This document shows positions 1-13,761 of a stretch of 22,730 nt of DNA, piece after piece. Positions within the stretch are counted from its first letter, which is position 1; each line of letters starts with the position of its first letter. The position numbers were made by a program, and so were the translations under genes. The DNA is from a virus (taxonomy: Duplodnaviria; Heunggongvirae; Uroviricota; Caudoviricetes): positions 1 to 22,730 of the IMG/VR virus record IMGVR_UViG_2675903433_000018; one strand, written 5' to 3'. The notes under the pieces are model-generated. The model was given only the letters and a program-made list of their open reading frames with translations. It was not told where the DNA came from and searched no databases.

Positions 1-2
1 TG

Positions 3-119
3 TCAGCGAAAGAAGAGTTGGCTAATGAACCGTACCCGATTGATGGCCTGTCCGGTGAATATGCGGAGAAATCCCTTGAAGAATGGGCGGAACAGATTCG
101 CAAAGGAGCTGACAAGTGA
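3..119 (+). CDS. 3-prime end of an upstream gene (partial; continues left of the window)
   Basis: Frame open from the window edge to TGA at 117-119 (…EELANEPYPIDGLSGEYAEKSLEEWAEQIRKGADK*); its stop overlaps the GTG start of the next gene (GTGA). Confidence 0.35.
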   Translation, partial: SAKEELANEPYPIDGLSGEYAEKSLEEWAEQIRKGADK

Positions 120-526
120 AGAAGATGATTTTTGTCGCGGCATTGTTGGTGAATATCCAACAAGTGCATGCTTCAGCAGCTATTGTAGCCTCTACCGCCG
201 CGACTACGGCTGCTGTAGCTGCTGCGAACTCTGCGAATATCGCAAACCAACAGGCACAGCGTGCTGCTAATGCATCAGCCAGCGTTCACCCAATCACCAT
301 TAAGAGCAGTAAGCAAAATCTGGGATTCATAACGTGCGGCACGCGTTCTAATGAAGCTGTAGGCTCTCTGGGATGTACGGTATATGGCGATAGTGAGCGC
401 AGAGAAATTCCATGGAAAACGTGGCCCGGATACGTTCTCGGATCGAAGCTCCCTGCCAGCTACGAAGTAAATGCCGTATCGTTTGATCACTATAACGGCG
501 TGGCAACTGTCTATTTTACATACTGA
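116..526 (+). CDS. Secreted/periplasmic small protein with N-terminal signal peptide and Ala/Thr-rich linker
   Basis: ORF with AAGGAG RBS 7 nt upstream of GTG at 116; N-terminus MKKMIFVAALLVNIQQVHA-SAA looks like a Sec signal peptide; two Cys in the mature part. Confidence 0.55.
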   Translation: MKKMIFVAALLVNIQQVHASAAIVASTAATTAAVAAANSANIANQQAQRAANASASVHPITIKSSKQNLGFITCGTRSNEAVGSLGCTVYGDSERREIPWKTWPGYVLGSKLPASYEVNAVSFDHYNGVATVYFTY

Positions 527-534
527 GGCTCCGC

Positions 535-1218
535 ATGAAATTCTCCAAATTTTCTGAGTTGGTGAATCGTATTTTGTCCAACAACCACAGCCATCGTCGC
601 GATATGGATGTAACGATCGTTGTTCATTCGCCTGGCAGCATTGGTTCAACACCTTCAGTTGAGGTTCAGTCAATTCATGCTGGTTTTGATTGGGATTCCG
701 GGAAAGTGCTTATTTTCCCAGCACAGCCACTGACCACGCTAACACCAGAGCAGGTTGCTGATATCACTGATAGTGTGCGCAAAGGTCAGTCTTGGCACGC
801 ATATCAGGAATATAAAAAGCATAAAGAGCAGTTGGAAAAATTGTCGATTGAACTGGATGCTGCAAAACAGCGCGTAGCAGAACTGGAGGCCAGTCGCGTG
901 ACGCTGGCGGAGGAGAACTCGTGGCTGAAGATGCTCATAGAAGATCATGCTGGTTGTACTGCTGTCTGCCCAAATTGCTCTCATGAAGAACCCAGTGAAA
1001 CAGACGACATTGTTTGGTCTTACCGTTCACGGGAAACGCCAGCCACCGACGCTTTCCTGGCTGAAGTGCGGGCGCAGGCGTTTAATGACCTTTGCTCGGT
1101 GTTCGTTAAGGACGCGACGGTTGTCGGGCTGGACGATGGCGACATCGTTACGGTGAAAGAAGCGACGGACGCCCTGCTGCATTGTGCGGAACAGCTTCGC
1201 AAAGGAGGCAACCAGTGA
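535..1218 (+). CDS. Hypothetical protein with central coiled coil and a CxxC motif
   Basis: 227-aa ORF, GAGG RBS before ATG at 535; stop TGA overlaps the GTG start of the next gene. Confidence 0.55.
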   Translation: MKFSKFSELVNRILSNNHSHRRDMDVTIVVHSPGSIGSTPSVEVQSIHAGFDWDSGKVLIFPAQPLTTLTPEQVADITDSVRKGQSWHAYQEYKKHKEQLEKLSIELDAAKQRVAELEASRVTLAEENSWLKMLIEDHAGCTAVCPNCSHEEPSETDDIVWSYRSRETPATDAFLAEVRAQAFNDLCSVFVKDATVVGLDDGDIVTVKEATDALLHCAEQLRKGGNQ

Positions 1219-2027
1219 GCAAGATTGACTTTCAGGCACTGCGTGAAAAGGCAGAGAAAGCAACTAAAGGAAGCTACATCGTAGGGCATACATCTGTTAA
1301 CCAGCACGGCAATTTAACAGGAGTTTTTGTTTGTCAAAAATGGAAAGGAGAACCCGGTGGCGTAATTGCAGAATGTCACGTTAACTGCCTGGTTGAAACA
1401 GATGCTCAGGCTTATGCAAACGCTGAATTCATAGCAGAGGCCAATCCGGCTACCGTGCTGGCACTGCTGGATGAACGGGAAAGAAACCAGCAATACATCA
1501 AACGCCGCGACCAGGAGAACGAGGATATTGCTCTTACGGTTGGGAAGCTGAGAGTTGAGCTTGAGGAAGTAAAACAACACGCTGAAGAATTATCCGAAAC
1601 CAAGGCTGTTCGTAACCAATGGCGGCCAGATATTTGCCCAATAACCGGACGTGCATTTTTCATGTGGATTGAGCATCCAACATTGGGGAATGTGCCGACA
1701 TATGGTGGCCCATTAGATAGTTACACCATTCCAACAAAGGACGGTGACGGTGAGTTTTCATGTGAGCGTTACGATCATGATTTTGGCGGTTGGGTAGAAA
1801 GCGAATGTCTTGGGTTATATCTGATTGATGATAGAGAACAATGCAGGGTCTACGAACTGGAGGAACGCGTTAAGGAACTGGATGCTCGGGAAATATCGCT
1901 CCCGGAACGTAGCAGCATGCTTCATCGAACAGATTATCACGATGATTACCAAACGGTAATGGCATACAAAGTTTCTGAAGTCATCGCTGCAATCCGCGCC
2001 GCTGGCATTCGCATCAAAGGAGAGTGA
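1215..2027 (+). CDS. Ead/Ea22-like phage protein (family call from memory)
   Basis: AGGAGG RBS 7 nt upstream of GTG at 1215 (the ORF track starts at 1182, but 1215 is coupled to the upstream stop); coiled-coil middle and C-terminal region reminiscent of Ead/Ea22-like prophage proteins. Confidence 0.55.
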   Translation: MSKIDFQALREKAEKATKGSYIVGHTSVNQHGNLTGVFVCQKWKGEPGGVIAECHVNCLVETDAQAYANAEFIAEANPATVLALLDERERNQQYIKRRDQENEDIALTVGKLRVELEEVKQHAEELSETKAVRNQWRPDICPITGRAFFMWIEHPTLGNVPTYGGPLDSYTIPTKDGDGEFSCERYDHDFGGWVESECLGLYLIDDREQCRVYELEERVKELDAREISLPERSSMLHRTDYHDDYQTVMAYKVSEVIAAIRAAGIRIKGE

Positions 2028-2028
2028 T

Positions 2029-2646
2029 ATGAGCGCTATAACCAAAGAACGTATCAAATTATTCATTAAAAATCCGCTTGATAACGGACTTACTCGTGGC
2101 GAACAAATGGAACTGGCACGAATTGCACTGGCATCACTGGAACGCGAACAGATTCGCCACGAGCATGCCAAATGGTCTGACTCCACATTTGGCTGCGTTG
2201 GCCCCATTGGTCCGCTGAAACATCTCTCAAAAGAGGCACTGGAAGCCGCAGCCGAACCAGACGATCTTGGCGAGTGGGCTGATATGCAGTTTCTGTTGTG
2301 GGATGCACAGCGCCGTGCTGGCATCAGCGATGCTGAAATTACCGCTGCTATGGAAGATAAATTGAAGATCAACATGAAGCGCCAGTGGCCTGAACCAAAA
2401 GATGGTGAGCCTCGCTTGCACATTAAAGAACCCGGCAACTCTCCGGTAACTCCGGATGGTTGGATAAGCTGTAGTGAGCGAATGCCACCTCAAGATGATT
2501 GGATTTTAATTTATTCAAAGCACGGCGAGTATATGGCAGGACAGGTACAAGGGGAATACGTGGAGTTGAGCGACGGCACTTTATCGTGGTTAGGGAACGC
2601 CTTGTTCTGGATGCCGCTACCAGAACCGCCGCAGGAGGCGAAATGA
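2029..2646 (+). CDS. DUF551-like domain protein
   Basis: AAGGAG RBS before ATG at 2029; C-terminus WISCSERMPP…LFWMPLPEPP resembles the DUF551 signature common in enterobacterial phages. Confidence 0.6.
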   Translation: MSAITKERIKLFIKNPLDNGLTRGEQMELARIALASLEREQIRHEHAKWSDSTFGCVGPIGPLKHLSKEALEAAAEPDDLGEWADMQFLLWDAQRRAGISDAEITAAMEDKLKINMKRQWPEPKDGEPRLHIKEPGNSPVTPDGWISCSERMPPQDDWILIYSKHGEYMAGQVQGEYVELSDGTLSWLGNALFWMPLPEPPQEAK

Positions 2647-2903
2647 TGGATGTAAAAGAGAAGGTTTTGCAGGTGATGCGTTCCCGGGCTGCCCTGCAAG
2701 ATAAAGCTCTCGGCGGGGAATATCCATTCAGGATGGCAACCTGGAATCTGCGGTTGGCAATGGAGAAGGAATTTCCTGATGAAGAATGGCGTTCGGCAGA
2801 TTTGCGCAAAATTCTTATGGAGCTGGCTAAAGACGGAACAGTATCCAAAGATACCCATGCCAGCCGGATTGGTCAGGCGGTATGGAGACTGGAGGTGAGG
2901 TAA
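2643..2903 (+). CDS. Hypothetical small protein
   Basis: AGGAGG RBS, ATG at 2643 overlapping the upstream stop (ATGA); the long ORF-track entry from 2499 overlaps the preceding gene and is probably an over-extension. Confidence 0.5.
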   Translation: MMDVKEKVLQVMRSRAALQDKALGGEYPFRMATWNLRLAMEKEFPDEEWRSADLRKILMELAKDGTVSKDTHASRIGQAVWRLEVR

Positions 2904-3184
2904 TGGCTAACCTGCAACTTGCCGTTAAAGGTGAATACTTCGATGCCATGATTCGCGGGGAGAAAACGGAAGAGTATCGCCTGTGTAATGACTACTGGAA
3001 TAAGCGCCTCGTTAACTGTAAGTATGACCGCCTGATTATCACAAAGGGATATCCGAAGCGCGAAGACTTCAGTCGCAGAATTGACGTCCCGTATAACGGA
3101 TATGAAATAAAAACAATCACACATCCACACTTCGGTGATAAACCGGTAAAGGTGTTCGCGATAAAAGTGAAGATTAATAGCTAA
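2903..3184 (+). CDS. Hypothetical small protein
   Basis: GGAGGTGAGG RBS, ATG at 2903 overlapping the upstream stop (TAATG). Confidence 0.5.
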   Translation: MANLQLAVKGEYFDAMIRGEKTEEYRLCNDYWNKRLVNCKYDRLIITKGYPKREDFSRRIDVPYNGYEIKTITHPHFGDKPVKVFAIKVKINS

Positions 3185-3207
3185 ATTTCAATTAACACGG
3201 AGTAATT

Positions 3208-3501
3208 ATGTGGCGCGGTAATAATCATGGCGGAAGTCAGATGATACTTACCGAATATACGTTCGACCACAAAACCAATAAATCACGTTCAGTATATTTG
3301 CTTCGGCACAATAGCCGCGTAAGAAATACCGTTCTGGAGCAAAATCTGACCGTTGAAATGGATAATTTGGGAAACTTCAAGCCAACAATATCGCTTGATG
3401 ATTTTCCGTGTGGTTTAAGCGAAAGAGAAGCAATGCTGAAATTAGCAGAATGGCTACAAAGATTAAGCATTGCTATTGAAGATAACTGGCCTGAACCTTA
3501 A
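3208..3501 (+). CDS. Hypothetical small protein
   Basis: 97-aa ORF in the same plus-strand gene array; start could alternatively be the internal ATG at 3241. Confidence 0.45.
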   Translation: MWRGNNHGGSQMILTEYTFDHKTNKSRSVYLLRHNSRVRNTVLEQNLTVEMDNLGNFKPTISLDDFPCGLSEREAMLKLAEWLQRLSIAIEDNWPEP

Positions 3502-3507
3502 ATTAAT

Positions 3508-3882
3508 ATGATGACACTAAAACATTTTCTTGACCGCCCATTATGGGCGGCAGCCGCAGGCTATGACTTTAATTATATGGATTGCATGTCTTATACTGCC
3601 AATGCATACGACCATTCGTTCAGCCTGCTGTTTAATTCTTTAAGAATATTGCCGGAAACAGAAGTTGGAGAGCTTCATTTATGGATATTGGGCTTTATCG
3701 CGGCTGGAGTTGGTATTGCCGTATGGCCTTTTATTTTCTGGCTGGTGGCTGTTGTAGTGTGGTTTAAGTGCAAGACGTACCGGAAAAAGTATTTCTTAGG
3801 TGATGGAATGACTGATATTGCCAAAATGAACATTGAAAAATGGACTAAGGAATGTGAAAAGAAATGGCGCAAAAAGAAATGA
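3508..3882 (+). CDS. Small membrane protein (hydrophobic helices, Lys-rich C-terminus)
   Basis: 124-aa ORF; segment LWILGFIAAGVGIAVWPFIFWLVAVVVWF is transmembrane-like; weak RBS, so start is uncertain. Confidence 0.4.
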   Translation: MMTLKHFLDRPLWAAAAGYDFNYMDCMSYTANAYDHSFSLLFNSLRILPETEVGELHLWILGFIAAGVGIAVWPFIFWLVAVVVWFKCKTYRKKYFLGDGMTDIAKMNIEKWTKECEKKWRKKK

Positions 3883-4553
3883 CTACTCTAACGACAGCAT
3901 ACTTACAGCAATTGGTATTTTTTGCAGGCGAGGCTACTTGTCATCCTGACGCAAACTATTTATTGGAATTTGAGAGGTTAGCGTCACCCGGTATCGTTCT
4001 GGAACTGGCCCAACAGGTGCTGGCCTTGAGACAAAAAGAGCAACATGAAAGTAATACGTGTAGATTGAATTTTGAGCAGTGGCTGGAACAGCAACGCGGA
4101 AAAATCGATGTGGACTGTGGTTGTGTGTCCACTGAAACATTCATGCACTGGCTGCGGGTAGCTTACGAGGCTGGCAACTATCCGGATATTCCGGATATTC
4201 CGGATAGTTCGGTGCCAGCGCCAGGAAAGGGCGTCACAGGTGAACGTATCCGCATTAAGCCGCATGTTTATCGCGAACTGGTTAACCGTCTCCACGATAC
4301 AGCGATCAAGTGTGCAGGCACCCAGCAATTACGAGAAAGAATTAGCCGTGTTTTGGGCGACGTTATTACGCCAGACCATCATAAACAAGCCGAGAAAAGT
4401 GACCTAGAAAGGTGTCACCTTGAGGCGGCATTAAACATTAAGCCGGGGCATACGCTTGGCATTATCGATGCTCTGTTGGTTCATAAGATGGCCAGGGCTT
4501 TATTGCCGCTGGTGGCTGAAAAGCATGAGGCGGACCATGCCAACGAAAGCTGA
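3879..4553 (+). CDS. Hypothetical protein containing a PDIPDIPD repeat
   Basis: ORF 3864-4553; the ATG at 3879 overlaps the upstream stop (ATGA), suggesting coupled translation; contains a 9-bp tandem repeat at 4183-4208. Confidence 0.45.
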   Translation: MTTLTTAYLQQLVFFAGEATCHPDANYLLEFERLASPGIVLELAQQVLALRQKEQHESNTCRLNFEQWLEQQRGKIDVDCGCVSTETFMHWLRVAYEAGNYPDIPDIPDSSVPAPGKGVTGERIRIKPHVYRELVNRLHDTAIKCAGTQQLRERISRVLGDVITPDHHKQAEKSDLERCHLEAALNIKPGHTLGIIDALLVHKMARALLPLVAEKHEADHANES

Positions 4554-4821
4554 GTTACAGGCGCGCATAGATATTCTTGAAAAAGAGAATGCGAGTCTAA
4601 AAGGAATGCTGGCGCGGGCGGAAAGGGAATTATCAGGCAAATTATTGCCAGAAGAGCTGCCACCAGCAGATATACCTGATCGAGTGTCCTGGTGGATGAA
4701 GTATTTCCGTGCACCGTGGGAGGCGTTTTGGTGCTACGACCATCGCAGATGGTGTGATGAGCTTGATAGCAGTTTCCCCTATTTTGCGGAAGGGAACTCT
4801 TGCCCTGAATGTAGGAGTTAA
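4537..4821 (+). CDS. Small coiled-coil protein with C-terminal Cys/His motif (paralog A)
   Basis: ATG at 4537 (alternative at 4525); C-terminus WWMKYFRAPWEAFWCYDHRRWCDELDSSFPYFAEGNSCPECRS is paralogous to the next gene. Confidence 0.5.
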   Translation: MPTKAELQARIDILEKENASLKGMLARAERELSGKLLPEELPPADIPDRVSWWMKYFRAPWEAFWCYDHRRWCDELDSSFPYFAEGNSCPECRS

Positions 4822-5126
4822 TGATGACCGGCGAGCTTTATTTTAAAATGGCACGGGAGCGGCGTGTGCATCTGGATCGGATATTTCATCTCCAGAAGAG
4901 AGTAGAAGAACTGGAACGTCGTCTGAACTGTTATCCTGTTGATATGGTGTCTGCAATACCGCCGATTCCAATAGAAATGCAGATCCGCCTATGGATGGAA
5001 GAATATGGAATGCCGTGGGAGATATTTTTCTGCTTCGACCATAAACAGTGGGTAGATGAGCTGGATAATAGTTTCCCATATTTCACAGAGAACACATGCC
5101 CAGTATGCAGGAAGAACGGAATATGA
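4821..5126 (+). CDS. Small coiled-coil protein with C-terminal Cys/His motif (paralog B)
   Basis: AGGAG RBS, ATG at 4821 overlapping the upstream stop (TAATG); C-terminus RLWMEEYGMPWEIFFCFDHKQWVDELDNSFPYFTENTCPVCRK. Confidence 0.55.
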   Translation: MMTGELYFKMARERRVHLDRIFHLQKRVEELERRLNCYPVDMVSAIPPIPIEMQIRLWMEEYGMPWEIFFCFDHKQWVDELDNSFPYFTENTCPVCRKNGI

Positions 5127-5647
5127 CAAAATTTGGAAAGCTGGAAGCTCATTTGCTAACTCGTAACTACCGCCATGATATACACCCATATAGACAGTGG
5201 ATCGATGAAAGTGAAGGAGTAGTTACATTCCCTCTATACAGGTTTGATGGGATGTTGGCTGGGTATCAGACATATAGACCAGGTGCTCCTAAGCAGCATA
5301 GCAATCCGAAGATGGCCCGGTATTTCACGCGATCACATGGCAGACAGTTACTTTGGGGAACCTATCTTCCTTTAAAAGATGGCCCAATATGGATAACTGA
5401 GTCTATTTTTAAGAGCGCAGCTGTACACAACGCGGGCGGCAATTCGTGGGCGCTGTTAGGTTCGACTTTCTCCGCAGGATTACGCCGTCAACTTGCGATG
5501 CTGCCGTATGACTTTCGTGTAATAGGTGACAATGATGCGGCTGGTGAATTACTTGTGAAGTCTTTCGGAAAAGGTTTTGTGGCCCCGGATCTTGACGAGC
5601 TACAACCACATGAAGTGTCTCATTTGATTTTTAGCCATAGCCAATAA
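5123..5647 (+). CDS. Toprim-like domain protein
   Basis: ATG at 5123 overlaps the upstream stop (ATGA); contains a conserved Glu (…WITESIF…) and a DxD motif (…VIGDNDAAGE…) typical of Toprim folds. Confidence 0.5.
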   Translation: MTKFGKLEAHLLTRNYRHDIHPYRQWIDESEGVVTFPLYRFDGMLAGYQTYRPGAPKQHSNPKMARYFTRSHGRQLLWGTYLPLKDGPIWITESIFKSAAVHNAGGNSWALLGSTFSAGLRRQLAMLPYDFRVIGDNDAAGELLVKSFGKGFVAPDLDELQPHEVSHLIFSHSQ

Positions 5648-5660
5648 GCATCTCTCCCCT

Positions 5661-5685
5661 TTAAGGCCACAATTAGTGGCCTTAA
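5661..5685. terminator. Hairpin between convergent genes (possible bidirectional terminator)
   Basis: TTAAGGCCAC-aatta-GTGGCCTTAA, a 10-bp perfect stem, between the plus-strand operon end (5647) and the minus-strand gene ending at 5708. Confidence 0.4.
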
Positions 5686-5707
5686 ACAATGTGTTTTCTA
5701 CCTCGAT

Positions 5708-5923
5708 TTAGCCTCTATTATCGTTTTGCATTTCTCTAATCCGGTTCAGAACTACTTCATGCTGGGCTTGGATAGCGGCTTTTTCGTTTTCAAGTCGGGC
5801 AATAGACATCTCTAATTCTTTGCTGTACCAGGCGAGTTGGGCCAGGTTCATCCGGTTGTGGTCGAGAGTTGGAGACACTTCGACGCGATCCCTTTCTTCC
5901 TGCTTTAATGAGAAGAGATTCAT
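5708..5923 (-). CDS. Small coiled-coil protein; positional candidate for P1 hot (theta-subunit homolog), similarity weak
   Basis: 71-aa minus-strand ORF directly downstream of the lxr-like gene; weak resemblance to HolE (SLKQEERDRVEV vs the theta E-DKVNVDL region). Confidence 0.4.
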   Translation of the reverse strand: MNLFSLKQEERDRVEVSPTLDHNRMNLAQLAWYSKELEMSIARLENEKAAIQAQHEVVLNRIREMQNDNRG

Positions 5924-5953
5924 CTCATCCCTTGAGGAAAATTCAGCAACAAT

Positions 5954-6289
5954 TTATTGTTGATGATCCGGTCGCTGCGGCATCCTCGCCAGTATAAATG
6001 GCGGTTCTTTTGAAAACATGAATGTCGGTTCAGACCGTGTTTTTACCCAGCTTGCCTGCTGTCTTTCGGCAAGTTCACAGGCTTCATCATAGTTATTTGC
6101 CAAACCAAGCACGGATGGACGGTCCCACGCGCCACCATTCAGACAATAAACAACAATTTTCCCGTCATGTTCTGTAACCCCATAGGGATGGTCCCACCAG
6201 GCGTCCAGCTGAGCTTTAGAGCGTTTCTCGTTAGGAGTGCAGTCAAAATTTTTGGGCAATACAGGATCGAGAGGAATGCGATTAGGCAT
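5954..6289 (-). CDS. lxr: LexA-regulated protein (P1 lxr-like), divergent from humD
   Basis: 111-aa minus-strand ORF whose upstream region shares the LexA box at 6426-6445 with humD; position matches the P1 hot-lxr-humD arrangement as I recall it. Confidence 0.5.
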   Translation of the reverse strand: MPNRIPLDPVLPKNFDCTPNEKRSKAQLDAWWDHPYGVTEHDGKIVVYCLNGGAWDRPSVLGLANNYDEACELAERQQASWVKTRSEPTFMFSKEPPFILARMPQRPDHQQ

Positions 6290-6425
6290 AGCTAATTCCT
6301 TATTAACTGATTGGCAACGAGGTTACGCTGATCCCGCGGTGATGAATAGTAGCAAAGCGCACAAAAATCATCAGCGGTGGTTGATGTACATAACGCGTTT
6401 GCACCAAAGGTGCTTCTTTAATGTA

Positions 6426-6445
6426 TACTGTACAGATAAACAGTA
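6426..6445. promoter_or_regulatory. LexA box (SOS operator) between the divergent lxr-like gene and humD
   Basis: TACTGTACAGATAAACAGTA matches the CTGT-N8-ACAG core and the TACTGT…ACAGTA consensus; lies 19 bp upstream of the humD ATG. Confidence 0.7.
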
Positions 6446-6463
6446 TTTTTGAGGTAAAACGCT

Positions 6464-6853
6464 ATGGGTTTCCCTTCTCCTGCGGCGGATTATGTTGAAA
6501 GCCGAATTTCTCTTGATCAGCAGATAATTAGACATCCATCAGCAACCTACTTCATGCGGGCAGCTGATAGCCATCACCGTGAGGGAATATTGCAGGGTGC
6601 TTTGCTGGTGGTTGATTCCTCGCTTACTCCGGTTGATGGTTCTCTGCTTGTGTGCGCTATGGAGGGTGAATATCGCATAAAGAGATACAGGAAGTATCCG
6701 CGCCAGCACCTGGAGGATTTAAGCACCGGGAAGAAAGAGGCGTTACCAGTAGATGACGATGGTTACACGGGTAGTAATGCTGTTTTTGGTGTGATCACTC
6801 ATGTCATCAATGATGCCCGAAGTGGGGAATTTGATGATTGTCCGGTGATTTAA
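6464..6853 (+). CDS. humD: HumD, UmuD-prime homolog (translesion synthesis accessory)
   Basis: 129-aa protein matches P1 HumD / UmuD-prime-like sequence from memory; GAGG RBS; LexA box upstream. Confidence 0.85.
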   Translation: MGFPSPAADYVESRISLDQQIIRHPSATYFMRAADSHHREGILQGALLVVDSSLTPVDGSLLVCAMEGEYRIKRYRKYPRQHLEDLSTGKKEALPVDDDGYTGSNAVFGVITHVINDARSGEFDDCPVI

Positions 6854-10602: not shown

Positions 10603-12086
10603 TGGCCAGAAGTTGCGTAACGGACCCACGTTGGCGCGAGCTGGTGGCGCTATATCGTTATGACTGGATTGCGGCCGCTGATGTGTTGTTTGGGAAGACA
10701 CCAACCTGGCAGCAGGATGAGATCATTGAGTCCACGCAGCAGGACGGCAGTTGGACAAGTGTGACCTCCGGCCATGGTACTGGTAAGTCGGATATGACGA
10801 GTATCATTGCAATACTCTTCATCATGTTTTTCCCCGGCGCTCGCGTTATTCTGGTCGCTAACAAAAGACAGCAAGTCCTTGATGGTATTTTCAAATACAT
10901 AAAGAGCAATTGGGCTACTGCTGTTAGCAGATTCCCGTGGTTGTCGAAGTATTTCATTCTTACAGAAACGTCTTTTTTTGAGGTGACTGGCAAGGGTGTT
11001 TGGACAATATTGATAAAGTCCTGTCGCCCCGGAAATGAGGAGGCGTTGGCTGGTGAACACGCCGATCATCTCTTGTATATCATCGACGAAGCGTCGGGTG
11101 TGAGTGATAAAGCATTCAGTGTGATAACAGGTGCGCTGACCGGTAAGGATAACCGTATTCTGCTTCTTTCCCAGCCTACGCGACCTTCAGGCTATTTCTA
11201 CGATTCACACCACAGACTAGCTATTCGCCCGGGAAATCCTGATGGATTGTTTACTGCGATAATACTGAATAGTGAAGAATCTCCGCTTGTAGATGCAAAA
11301 TTTATACGAGCAAAACTTGCGGAGTATGGCGGTCGTGATAACCCCATGTACATGATCAAAGTACGTGGTGAATTTCCCAAATCTCAAGATGGCTTTCTTC
11401 TTGGTCGTGATGAGGTTGAGCGGGCGACGCGGCGAAAGGTCAAGATTGCCAAAGGATGGGGCTGGGTTGCATGTGTTGACGTTGCTGGTGGCACAGGACG
11501 AGATAAGTCCGTTATTAATATCATGATGGTGTCCGGCCAGCGAAATAAACGCCGTGTAATCAACTATCGTATGCTGGAATACACAGACGTTACAGAAACG
11601 CAGTTAGCCGCCAAGATTTTCGCAGAATGTAACCCAGAACGGTTCCCGAACATAACCATAGCTATTGATGGCGATGGCTTGGGGAAATCGACGGCTGATC
11701 TGATGTACGAACGCTATGGTATTACCGTCCAGCGTATCCGCTGGGGTAAAAAGATGCACAGCCGTGAAGATAAAAGCCTTTATTTCGATATGCGCGCTTT
11801 CGCGAATATTCAGGCGGCAGAAGCTGTAAAATCAGGGCGTATGCGGCTTGATAAGGGGGCTGCGACTATAGAGGAAGCATCAAAGATACCGGTAGGGATA
11901 AATTCCGCAGGTCAATGGAAGGTGATGTCAAAGGAAGATATGAAGAAAAAACTCAACCTGCACTCACCGGACCATTGGGATACATATTGTTTCGCTATGT
12001 TGGCGAACTATGTTCCCCAAGATGAAGTGCTTAGCGTCGAAGACGAAGCGCAGGTTGATGAAGCTCTGGCATGGCTTAATGAATGA
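10602..12086 (+). CDS. pacB: PacB, large terminase subunit
   Basis: 494-aa ORF, ATG overlapping the pacA stop (TAATG); size and position match P1 PacB. Confidence 0.85.
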
Positions 12087-12089
12087 ATA

Positions 12090-12106
12090 TTTGCTCTAAT
12101 AAATTG
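12090..12106 (+). promoter_or_regulatory. C1-operator-like 17-mer immediately after pacB, overlapping a candidate promoter
   Basis: TTTGCTCTAATAAATTG (15/17 to remembered consensus); followed by TTGTGT-17-TACATT (12104-12132). Confidence 0.45.
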
Positions 12107-12138
12107 TGTTTTTTAACTACCGATGTTACATTGAGCCT

Positions 12139-12259
12139 GACCTCTTGCGCCTTGAGGCATTTTCGGTTTATGCTTATCAGGCACCTCATTAAAACGGGTG
12201 CCGGGATTGGCCTCCCGCTTAAGTCTAAGGCGATACAGACGCCGCTCGCGTCTTTTTTT
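12139..12259 (+). ncRNA. Putative small structured RNA (c4-like antisense repressor candidate) ending at an intrinsic terminator
   Basis: Candidate promoter upstream; nested hairpins (GCCTGA…TCAGGC enclosing CCTC…GAGG); ends at GACGC-cgctc-GCGTC + T7 (12238-12259); contains ATTGGCCTCC, complementary to the downstream RBS region, and a copy of GTCTAAGG. Confidence 0.3.
12238..12259 (+). terminator. Rho-independent terminator
   Basis: GACGC-cgctc-GCGTC followed by TTTTTTT. Confidence 0.6.
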
Positions 12260-12424
12260 GTATCGGCGTACACGCACACCTCTACAATGGTGGGCTGTAT
12301 GGGGCTACCTTCGGGTAGGCTGGTTACCTTGGACGCCAGTAAGGCCAACTCCGTACAGTCCACCGCCAGCAAGATTGGTCTCTTCTGCGGTGGTTACATA
12401 CCAACGTCTAAGGAGGCTGCCAAT

Positions 12425-12646
12425 ATGGCTACTATCCCTACCCCAACTCATCCTGAATTTATCTGGCGCTTTTACTCCTGCCAAAAACGTCACTATCACT
12501 TCGTTATTGCACCAACAGAAGATGAGGCTCGCTCTCAGCTTCCTGACGCCCCATGTATTTTCTCTGCCCGTTTTTCCACTGATTCACGCAATTCTCTCAG
12601 TTACTGGTGCCTCCCTGTTAACGCTTCTGCTCAGGAGGGACTATGA
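12425..12646 (+). CDS. Small 73-aa protein translationally coupled to the antirepressor gene (icd-like by position and size)
   Basis: AAGGAGG RBS 8 nt upstream of ATG 12425; stop overlaps the ant start (ATGA); the longer ORF-track entries 12083-12646 and 12198-12668 run across the terminator and are unlikely to be real. Confidence 0.55.
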   Translation: MATIPTPTHPEFIWRFYSCQKRHYHFVIAPTEDEARSQLPDAPCIFSARFSTDSRNSLSYWCLPVNASAQEGL

Positions 12647-13761
12647 GAACGTCATTAGTCACCCGTGAAGAGATGATCGAGGCAATTGAACAGCACACAA
12701 TCTGTATCAGCACCAGGGATATACCTGGCGTTATTGCCAACTACTTCATGATCACCAAACAACTTTACCGGAGAAAGGACAAGAACGCGGTTCACCGTAT
12801 CCTGTTGTCTGATATCCGCGAATACCTGCTCGAACAGGGTCATCTGAATTACGCAACCGTCGCAGCCGAAGCACGCAAGGAGGCACACAGAATGAAAGCA
12901 AATAACGTTAAATTAGAAAAAATTCATGCACCTTCAGTTCAGGAATCGGAGCTGGTGGTTGTTCAGAATCAGTCTGATGAAATTCCCGTTCTGGAATGGC
13001 AGGGAGTGCGTGTAGTGACAACCGAGACTCTTGCGAGAGGGTATGGGACAGAAACAATCCGTATTCGCCAAAATCATCATGAGAACAAAGTACGCTTTGT
13101 TGAAGGGAAGCACTTTTTCAAAGTTGAAGGAGAATCATTGCGCGAGTTGAAGCACAGAGTAGCTTTAAACTACTCTGTAAAAATTGCTCGCAATGTTCGC
13201 TCACTCACCCTCTGGACAGAACGCGGCGCAGCCCGCCACGCTAAAATGCTCGAAACCGATCAGGCATGGGCATTCTTTGAAAAACTGGAAGACAGCTACT
13301 TCCGGCAAAAAGAACAGCAACCGGTTGCAATCCCCCAGACGCTTCCAGAAGCTCTGCGCCTGGCTGCCGAACTGGCTGAACAAAAGCAACTTCTGGAACA
13401 GAAAGCCCACCAGCTAAATCAGCAGCTGGTGGCCGCCGCTCCTAAGGTCGATTTTGCCGACCGGGTATCAGTGGCCAAGGGGATCCTGATTGGGAATTTT
13501 GCAAAGGTTGTTGGACTTAAGCAAAACGCGCTGTTTGTCTGGTTACGGGAGAACGGCATCCTGATAGCGTCCGGTGGACGTAAAAATGTGCCGTTCCAGC
13601 AGTACATCAACGCGGGGTATTTCACGGTGAAAGAAGTGGTGCTGGATGATGAAGATGGCTACCAGATACGGTTGACGCCTCAATTAACGGGTAAAGGCCA
13701 GCAGTGGTTGACGCGTAAACTGCTCGATGCTGGCTTGTTAAAACCGGTGGCGGCTGAATAA
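12643..13761 (+). CDS. ant: Phage antirepressor (ORF6N/BRO-N-like central domain plus KilAC/Ant C-terminal domain), Ant1-like
   Basis: 372-aa ORF; central region (VLEWQGVRVVTTETLARGYG…KHFFKVEGESL…) resembles the AntA/ORF6N domain and the C-terminus (…NVPFQQYINAGYFTVKEV…TPQLTGKGQQWL…) resembles KilAC/Ant; AGGAGG RBS. Confidence 0.7.
   Translation: MRTSLVTREEMIEAIEQHTICISTRDIPGVIANYFMITKQLYRRKDKNAVHRILLSDIREYLLEQGHLNYATVAAEARKEAHRMKANNVKLEKIHAPSVQESELVVVQNQSDEIPVLEWQGVRVVTTETLARGYGTETIRIRQNHHENKVRFVEGKHFFKVEGESLRELKHRVALNYSVKIARNVRSLTLWTERGAARHAKMLETDQAWAFFEKLEDSYFRQKEQQPVAIPQTLPEALRLAAELAEQKQLLEQKAHQLNQQLVAAAPKVDFADRVSVAKGILIGNFAKVVGLKQNALFVWLRENGILIASGGRKNVPFQQYINAGYFTVKEVVLDDEDGYQIRLTPQLTGKGQQWLTRKLLDAGLLKPVAAE
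12892..13761 (+). CDS. In-frame internal start giving a shorter antirepressor isoform (Ant2-like)
   Basis: AAGGAGG RBS 8 nt upstream of in-frame ATG 12892 (MKANNVKL…), giving a 289-aa product; P1 ant is described as producing two in-frame products. Confidence 0.4.
   Translation: MKANNVKLEKIHAPSVQESELVVVQNQSDEIPVLEWQGVRVVTTETLARGYGTETIRIRQNHHENKVRFVEGKHFFKVEGESLRELKHRVALNYSVKIARNVRSLTLWTERGAARHAKMLETDQAWAFFEKLEDSYFRQKEQQPVAIPQTLPEALRLAAELAEQKQLLEQKAHQLNQQLVAAAPKVDFADRVSVAKGILIGNFAKVVGLKQNALFVWLRENGILIASGGRKNVPFQQYINAGYFTVKEVVLDDEDGYQIRLTPQLTGKGQQWLTRKLLDAGLLKPVAAE

Follow-up and report, generated by a model that had tools for sequence, protein, structure and literature searches.

Background

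One of the eight hypervariable regions of P1-like phage-plasmids runs from pmgT to humD, and replacement of pmgT left lysogeny unaffected (PMC9603915); in P1 itself pmgT, pmgU, pmgV, upfN and upfO are nonessential, plaques still being formed (PMC10695390). The present study concerns the corresponding region of another element, positions 1–5650 of a 22,730-nucleotide stretch of DNA (hereafter the window) from IMG/VR virus record IMGVR_UViG_2675903433_000018 (Caudoviricetes), in which an original prediction made from the letters alone had seen a long, tightly packed operon of small early-type genes. We regard it as probable that this array makes up the distal three-quarters of the variable operon of early genes between pap and lxr/humD (the pmgT-pmgU-pmgV-upfMNO region of P1 and the "hea operon" of P7), and that it consists of C1-repressed, translationally coupled, exchangeable and dispensable early cassettes.

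The second described system with a bearing on this array is the exo-xis region of lambda and its relatives. The exo-xis genes give the earliest transcripts from pL and are arranged as a conserved block and then a variable group after ea22, the product of which is pro-lysogenic (PMC8614690, PMC7093339). The variants of Ea22 have a mosaic structure, and the DUF551 domain is portable (PMC10834534). In phage 933W the order of this region is exo, orf60a, orf63, orf61, an Ead/Ea22-like gene, three small genes, a DUF551 gene, an ASCH gene, one further gene and xis.

Results and Discussion

A closely packed gene array in the probable variable slot of a P1-like phage-plasmid

The window belongs to a P1-like phage-plasmid, with lxr, humD, phd, doc, pdcB, lpa, pacA, pacB, an Ash/antirepressor pair, c1, cre and ref following the array in P1 order. 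Positions 1–5650 hold the end of one gene cut by the window edge (g0) and 12 intact genes (g1 to g12), every one on the plus strand, with the same starts that the Prokaryotic Genome Annotation Pipeline (PGAP) chose on identical proteins of related plasmids. Counted in nucleotides from each stop to the next start, negative values being overlaps, the spacing is -4 (GTGA), +8, -4 (GTGA), +1, -4 (ATGA) and -1 (TAATG) from g0/g1 to g5/g6, and +23, +6, -19, -17, -1 (TAATG) and -4 (ATGA) from g6/g7 to g11/g12. Eight of the 12 junctions overlap (GTGA, ATGA and TAATG twice each, and once each by 17 and 19 nucleotides), the remaining gaps measure 1, 6, 8 and 23 nucleotides, none being wider, and the overlap of 19 nucleotides at g8/g9 becomes an ATGA if g9 starts at 3879. 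Shine-Dalgarno-like motifs (at least 4 of 6 matches) stand within the upstream gene for 11 of the 12 starts, g8 being the exception; a single strand, overlapping or abutting stops and starts and ribosome-binding sites inside the upstream genes together make up the anatomy of a coupled operon.

Promoter-like sites within the array number 8, against 10.2 +/- 3.1 in shuffled sequences, and are thus not in excess; nor do internal terminator-like sites exceed the number in shuffled sequences. On the operon strand one terminator-like site alone is convincing, a hairpin at 5660–5686 (11-bp stem, 5-nucleotide loop; RNA folding energy -17.2 kcal/mol, z = -5.2), which closes the array before the convergent lxr. 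No Rfam family is matched in window positions 1–6600, and each array product has a strong PHROG match, with E-values from 1e-36 to 1e-87. Because of the packing, the hairpin and these matches for every product, the original prediction of a tightly packed plus-strand operon of small genes that ends at a hairpin is confirmed.

The right flank of the P1-like variable slot (lxr-humD-phd-doc) is found in the window, and the left flank, pap, lies outside it, the array running on past the left window edge. In the operons of three loci used for comparison (L001, L004 and L005) the sequence matching window positions 1–119 is the fourth gene after pap, and the nearest relatives have four more genes and a C1 operator upstream. 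All 10 of the 10 P1-like relatives have this operator, one mismatch away from the consensus, right at the stop codon of pap; its name is OpmgT/Op88 in P1 and Op(hea) in the annotation of P7, the P1 regulatory features being taken from the GenBank annotation. The window itself contains nine C1-operator-like sites where 0.06 are expected, none of them within positions 1–5650. Operator and array end lie 2.25 kb apart in P1 and 10.3 kb apart in L004 (p88_0502-1), the two extremes of the range.

The array resembles the pmgT-pmgU-pmgV-upfMNO region of P1 in its probable slot between pap and lxr/humD/phd/doc, its strand, its hypervariability and the PmgU domain of g9, and in all relatives the operon has a C1 operator at its head. 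It differs in extent, with at least 5.65 kb and 12 genes against 2.25 kb and six annotated genes in P1, and in content, with P1 counterparts lacking for 11 of the 12 genes, no hot and an interrupted lxr. The sole part of the array with a P1 counterpart lies in g9 (3864–4553), a 229-residue protein (phrog_21459, 2e-83) of which residues 117–217 correspond to PmgU (blastp identity 96%, 7e-70). An accessory region had been proposed originally, and as the comparison shows anything but an array of conserved, syntenic P1 core genes, that interpretation stands. In P1 (L002, 12489–13558) the C-terminus of the annotated pmgT overlaps pmgU in another reading frame; because PmgU is part of the longer g9 and the end of pmgT overlaps it out of frame, the annotated P1 pmgT/pmgU pair may represent a rearranged or mis-called gene.

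Variation among relatives

Gene content at this position varies among otherwise similar P1-like elements. In collections of 50,697 phage records, 72,556 plasmid records and 5,426 complete Escherichia coli genomes, no record covers 80% or more of positions 1–5650, the best reaching 67%. Positions 2434–6500 are 100% identical to plasmid p00_3230-1, positions 2607–6500 are 99.7% identical to pO111_2, and the left 2.4 kb of the window form another patchwork. Over 13 loci compared in detail, g1 is present in one, a non-P1, D6-like plasmid, and g10–g12 are present in five. An intact g10–g12 module occurs in 23 of the E. coli genomes, as compared with the 549 in which a P1-type pacA is present over at least 80% of its length, and g1 occurs in 64 of the 5,426, at 47 chromosomal and 19 plasmid places. 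Relatives also have frameshifted or partial genes and insertion sequences (ISVsa5, IS1203, IS903) in this region.

In two of the compared records, parts of the array stand in a setting other than a typical P1-like plasmid. Plasmid p95_MLI121 (L010) carries g1, part of g3 and g10–g12 adjoining humD and phd/doc, with other neighbouring genes and with no P1-type C1 operator in the stretch fetched, and is read as a D6-like phage-plasmid. In the chromosome record of E. coli strain 131 (L011) the annotation includes a complete P1-like element, and this variable operon is part of it.

For each open reading frame (ORF) with a diverged homologue among the 13 loci, the pairwise ratio of nonsynonymous to synonymous substitution rates (dN/dS) lies below 1, at 0.03–0.58, each value being based on few substitutions per gene. 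It is 0.13 for g1, 0.21–0.37 for g2, about 0.3 for g7 and 0.03–0.21 for the PmgU domain of g9; g4 was measured over its DUF551 end only, and g11 has no diverged homologue among these loci. Because of these ratios the array genes are, as far as sequence comparison tells, maintained under purifying selection.

Cassettes and junctions held in common with lambdoid phages

Pieces of the array occur in 3,566 of the 5,426 E. coli genomes, mainly in the chromosome (7,359 places), and in hundreds of Shiga toxin (Stx)-converting phages. The exo-xis region of 933W belongs to the pL operon and runs collinear with g3, g4 and g6, in that an Ead/Ea22-like gene is followed by DUF551 and then by ASCH in both, and stretches of 90–99% nucleotide identity connect the array with 933W and Stx2 phages. 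The N-terminal third of g3 is 94.6% identical in nucleotides to the Ead/Ea22-like gene of 933W, and g6 is 90.8% identical to the ASCH gene. More generally, the exo-xis region of lambda, 933W, Phi24B and other Stx and lambdoid phages is, like the array, a compact series of small and mosaic genes, nonessential and early as those of the array probably are too, in which the Ea22-type proteins have swapped C-terminal domains (PMC10834534).

The differences are equally plain. The array lies in a plasmid prophage and would be under C1 rather than pL/N control, with no exo, xis or N nearby, and the DUF1317, DUF1382 and ZapA-like families of the orf60a-orf63-orf61-orf73 block, as known from 933W, are not among the Pfam or PHROG matches of its 13 products. 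Conversely, the modules g1 and g7–g12 do not occur in the 933W or Stx2a loci compared. The array would work like an exo-xis region and shares genes with it, yet is not one.

Nucleotide homology to the 13 loci, which were hand-picked and are not independent of one another, ends at positions that form 28 clusters. Eleven of these lie no more than 25 nucleotides from a gene junction, where 13.7% would be expected (binomial P = 7e-4). The remaining clusters fall inside the multi-domain genes g2, g3, g4 and g9, with breakpoints at 915–917 in g2, at 1452–1459, 1550–1576 and 1875 in g3, and at 2434 in g4, the last of which coincides with the boundary between the pyrophosphohydrolase domain of g4 and its DUF551.

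Two of the junctions carry a repeat of 43 nucleotides (family D3) on the plus strand, one copy at g0/g1 (84–126, with AAAGGAG and GTGA) and the other, 81% identical, at g2/g3 (1183–1225), so that the pair, 1099 nucleotides apart from start to start, brackets g1 and g2. The repeat has the form TG.GCGGAACAG.TTCGCAAAGGAG...GTGA and encodes the common C-terminal tail, a ribosome-binding site and the GTGA overlap. In a Stx2a phage (L013) g0-like and g3-like genes adjoin directly at a single such junction, and the slot taken here by g1 and g2 holds an S-adenosylmethionine (SAM) methyltransferase gene in p00_3230-1 (L005) and a DUF4752 gene together with a g2-like gene in pO111_2. In its sequence the repeat looks like a linker for cassette exchange, and cassettes would be expressible without a promoter of their own because each brings or reuses a coupled start.

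Products of g0 to g9

What remains of g0 (3–119) is its last 38 codons, which encode a C-terminal tail common to Ead/Ea22-associated proteins (phrog_28257, 5e-21; phrog_614/368) and align with the 3' ends of genes called "ead/Ea22-like family protein" in L001, L004, L005 and L011. With a GTGA overlap there follows g1 (116–526), a predicted exported protein of 136 residues with a VHA/SA motif (phrog_8805, 3e-87) and a hydrophobic segment at residues 5–24, and then g2 (535–1218), a 227-residue mosaic of an N-terminal domain, a coiled coil and a C-terminal tail of the g0 type (phrog_368 and phrog_6026, about 1e-55). The Ead/Ea22-like protein g3 (1215–2027; 270 residues; PF13935, 6e-33, residues 2–129) overlaps g2 by GTGA.

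The 205-residue product of g4 (2029–2646) is, by its profile matches, a fusion of a MazG-like dATP/dGTP pyrophosphohydrolase domain (PF04447, 7e-42, residues 42–137; 142 bits against a gathering cut-off of 23) with DUF551 (PF04448, 3e-10, residues 144–202). It resembles MazZ of cyanophage S-2L and the PF04447 family in this strong profile match and in an acidic ExxE...ExxD motif, E69-x2-E72 and E82-x2-D85 aligning with the acidic motifs of MazZ 7ODY in a weak PDB match, and differs in being fused to DUF551. Neither Pfam nor PHROG flags a PurZ or DatZ partner among the 13 products, and a role of g4 in the synthesis of 2-aminoadenine DNA is therefore not expected.

An ATGA overlap leads from g4 to g5 (2643–2903; 86 residues; phrog_2814, 9e-53), a homologue of which is called "eaa protein" by PGAP in L009 and another of which is found in a Stx2a phage, and a TAATG overlap leads on to g6 (2903–3184), an ASCH-domain protein of 93 residues (phrog_625, 2e-48). 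In relatives the identical protein, WP_000002123.1, bears the annotation ASCH, and the Pfam ASCH match is below threshold (E 0.04). The 97-residue product of g7 (3208–3501; phrog_1258, 2e-48), which lies in a stretch of low G+C content (40%), is followed by that of g8 (3508–3882), a predicted small membrane protein of 124 residues (phrog_2638, 7e-63) that is hydrophobic over residues 53–89 with a maximum Kyte-Doolittle value of 2.4. The G+C content is about 40% over g7 and g8 (window 3001–4000) and about 49% on either side, which suggests, from composition, that these two cassettes differ in origin from their neighbours.

The family resemblances that had been proposed from the letters hold up in these searches: Ead/Ea22 and DUF551 by the profile matches just given, Toprim by way of the fold of g12 (below), and the secreted and the membrane protein, at the level of prediction, by the hydrophobic segments of g1 and g8. 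Relaxed thresholds in Pfam add nothing beyond the ASCH match of g6 and coiled-coil noise, and NCBIfam gives no match for the ten array products scanned (g1 to g9 and g12).

The g10-g11-g12 module

In P1-like and D6-like plasmids the last three genes move together. The 94-residue product of g10 (4537–4821) has an N-terminal coiled coil and, as a putative zinc site, C66-x2-H69-x19-C89-x2-C92; g11 (4821–5126; 101 residues; phrog_3797, 2e-36), which overlaps g10 by TAATG, is its tandem paralogue, with 45% identity. Both share the coiled coil and the conserved C-x2-H-x19/20-C-x2-C motif, and a 71-nucleotide direct repeat at 4714–4784 and 5013–5083 joins the two genes in sequence. One database homologue, P0052, is a recombinant of g10 and g11. 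Some NCBI and UniRef records name homologues of the pair "antitoxin PHD", a label without support here and probably a misnomer.

The product of g12 (5123–5647), which overlaps g11 by ATGA, has 174 residues and is, by its model, a stand-alone primase catalytic core of the DnaG/T7 gp4 type, an N-subdomain with Toprim, the Toprim assignment coming from the fold. In PHROG it matches phrog_849 ("DNA primase", 4e-53) over positions 145–333 of 435. Its AlphaFold2 model has a predicted local distance difference test (pLDDT) score of 90, and the top 38 Foldseek matches in the PDB are all structures of DnaG, T7 gp4 or T4 gp61 primases, with 160–170 residues aligned to primase catalytic domains, a best E-value of 1e-5 and a template modelling (TM) score of about 0.6. 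No Pfam model recognises g12, and single-sequence searches of the PDB with g12 and g6 return nothing significant. Like those primases, g12 has the RNA-polymerase-domain fold with Toprim and invariant glutamate and DxD metal ligands (E93, D136 and D138, invariant among homologues); unlike them, its 174 residues are all catalytic core, with no zinc-binding, helicase or helicase-binding domain. A profile search with the family gives 1,638 cluster representatives, and as most of the best 150 are 160–200 residues long, the stand-alone form is widespread. In other contigs that look phage-like (L014–L016), distant homologues likewise belong to arrays of small genes.

It could be imagined that g10 and g11 supply a DnaG-like CHC2 zinc domain in trans to g12, as a split primase. 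We rejected this candidate, as neither in sequence nor in fold does the pair resemble the zinc domains of primases, its family profile finds leucine zippers only among PDB sequences, and three distant homologues of g12 have no C-H-C-C neighbour. A looser proposal would make the module a self-contained device for priming or for interference with replication, in which g12 works with g10 and g11 or is regulated by them, perhaps for the priming of phage DNA independent of host DnaG, as a decoy or for anti-defence, and would give a wider family of stand-alone primase cores of about 175 residues an unrecognised role in early arrays; we think this improbable.

Weighing the explanations

In the reading that we favour, the array would be expressed as one transcript from a C1-repressed promoter beside pap; it would be shut off while the element is a plasmid prophage and turned on early once infection or induction had taken place. 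Coupling, or re-initiation at the stop/start overlaps, would allow cassettes that lack a promoter to be expressed wherever they landed, and recombination at the short conserved junctions may swap them between P1-like plasmids and lambdoid prophages that share an E. coli cell. Their products would be early, accessory and dispensable, influencing the nucleotide and DNA metabolism of the host as well as the balance of lysis and lysogeny rather than taking part in virion assembly; candidate effectors are the MazG-like deoxynucleoside triphosphate (dNTP) pyrophosphohydrolase, the nucleic-acid-binding ASCH protein, the primase catalytic core and the Ea22-type proteins.

Several points weigh against this reading, among them the few substitutions behind the dN/dS values and the choice of loci behind the breakpoint statistic. 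As the promoter and the C1 operator lie outside the window, the regulation of the array is read from its relatives only, and the single mRNA, the early timing and the coupling are derived from anatomy. Furthermore, the terminal hairpin is followed by a weak U-run, and g3 and g4 alone among the array products have Pfam matches above threshold.

The alternative that survives best, and that overlaps with our own, would have the array be an anti-defence island, first expressed after DNA entry, with products that neutralise host immunity: g4 might destroy nucleotide signals or altered dNTP pools, g6 might mask or read modified nucleic acids, and g12 might serve as a decoy. The early, repressor-controlled position (as known from relatives) and the fast turnover of small genes are consistent with it, as are a SAM methyltransferase or phosphoadenosine phosphosulfate (PAPS)-reductase-family gene in the arrays of relatives and a distant homologue of g12 in an array with a weak match to Lar restriction alleviation. 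The P1 anti-restriction genes darA and darB, however, lie elsewhere in the P1 genome. The MazZ dATP/dGTP pyrophosphohydrolase, of the Pfam family of g4, has been described as an inhibitor of host restriction enzymes (PMC10834534), which counts in favour; yet no array product matches a characterised anti-defence protein (no dedicated anti-defence library was searched), and the homologous exo-xis region has so far been tied to the timing of lysis and lysogeny and not to immunity (PMC7093339, PMC8614690). PADLOC matches no defence model to the array products, giving only two LmuB coiled-coil matches at E about 0.01. On balance we consider an anti-defence island rather unlikely.

The array would serve the host instead if it were cargo for lysogenic conversion or superinfection exclusion, expressed from the plasmid prophage, for which g1 and g8 are the candidates. 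The export-signal-like N-terminus of g1 and the transmembrane segments of g8, both predicted, would suit such a role, as would the finding that g1 resides mostly in chromosomal prophages. The C1 operator at the head of the operon in relatives predicts, on the other hand, silence in the lysogen, and the promoter-like sites of the array do not exceed those of shuffled sequences; nor is any PADLOC defence family matched. This explanation is unlikely.

That the array is decaying, non-functional DNA carried along by hitch-hiking is very unlikely. The frameshifted and partial genes and insertion sequences in this region of relatives and the nonsense codon in the adjacent lxr would fit with decay, but all 12 of the 12 ORFs are intact here and have the dN/dS values reported above, the catalytic residues of g4 and g12 are kept, and the Shine-Dalgarno-like motifs and coupling signals are preserved. 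Least of all does virion morphogenesis survive, a function suggested by the historical "pmg" (putative morphogenetic) names in P1 and by the "putative morphogenetic protein" annotation of the g9 homologue in RCS47, and largely refuted by the nonessentiality of pmgT, pmgU and pmgV under CRISPR interference and deletion (PMC10695390), by unrelated content among relatives with near-identical virion genes and by a domain content that is enzymatic or related to nucleic acids.

The right border and the pacB-c1 interval

The border of the operon is marked on the right by lxr (5708–6289, minus strand, by alignment to lxr of P1 and upf94.2 of P7), a convergent gene outside the array that is interrupted here. 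Codon 112, GAA in P1 and P7, is TAA in the window (stop at 5954–5956) and splits the gene into two minus-strand ORFs, 5708–5923 and 5954–6289, of 71 and 111 residues, which both match phrog_6164, a single family of 194 residues; the same split is annotated in plasmids of the pO111_2 type. These two convergent ORFs had been taken for hot and lxr. That reading is rejected because tblastn with P1 Hot finds no hot homologue in the 22.7-kb window, and the nucleotide alignment to a single lxr with an in-frame TAA likewise rules it out. In P1 and RCS47 hot, which encodes an analogue of the theta subunit of DNA polymerase III, stands between the variable operon and humD.

Farther downstream, in the interval between pacB and c1 (12083–13761), the window encodes an Ash-family protein (PF10554) and an antirepressor that combines ORF6N with KilAC (PF10543, PF03374), with a C1-operator-like site at 12090; P1 has no genes at this position.

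Conclusions

With a variable early operon of exchangeable, dispensable cassettes as its probable identity, the array is an ordinary feature, a new combination of known cassettes in a variable region of a kind already described, and only the stand-alone primase-core family and the linked C-H-C-C pair are mildly unusual. The practical value of these results is modest, as they open no long-standing question and reveal no new kind of system, but they give firmer annotation to three families that are usually called "hypothetical", the MazG-like-DUF551 fusion, the stand-alone primase core and the C-H-C-C pair. For the biology of these elements they mean that P1-like phage-plasmids share a common stock of early cassettes without promoters with the lambdoid and Stx prophages of E. 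coli, and that short junction sequences with a ribosome-binding site and a stop/start overlap mark the probable points of exchange.

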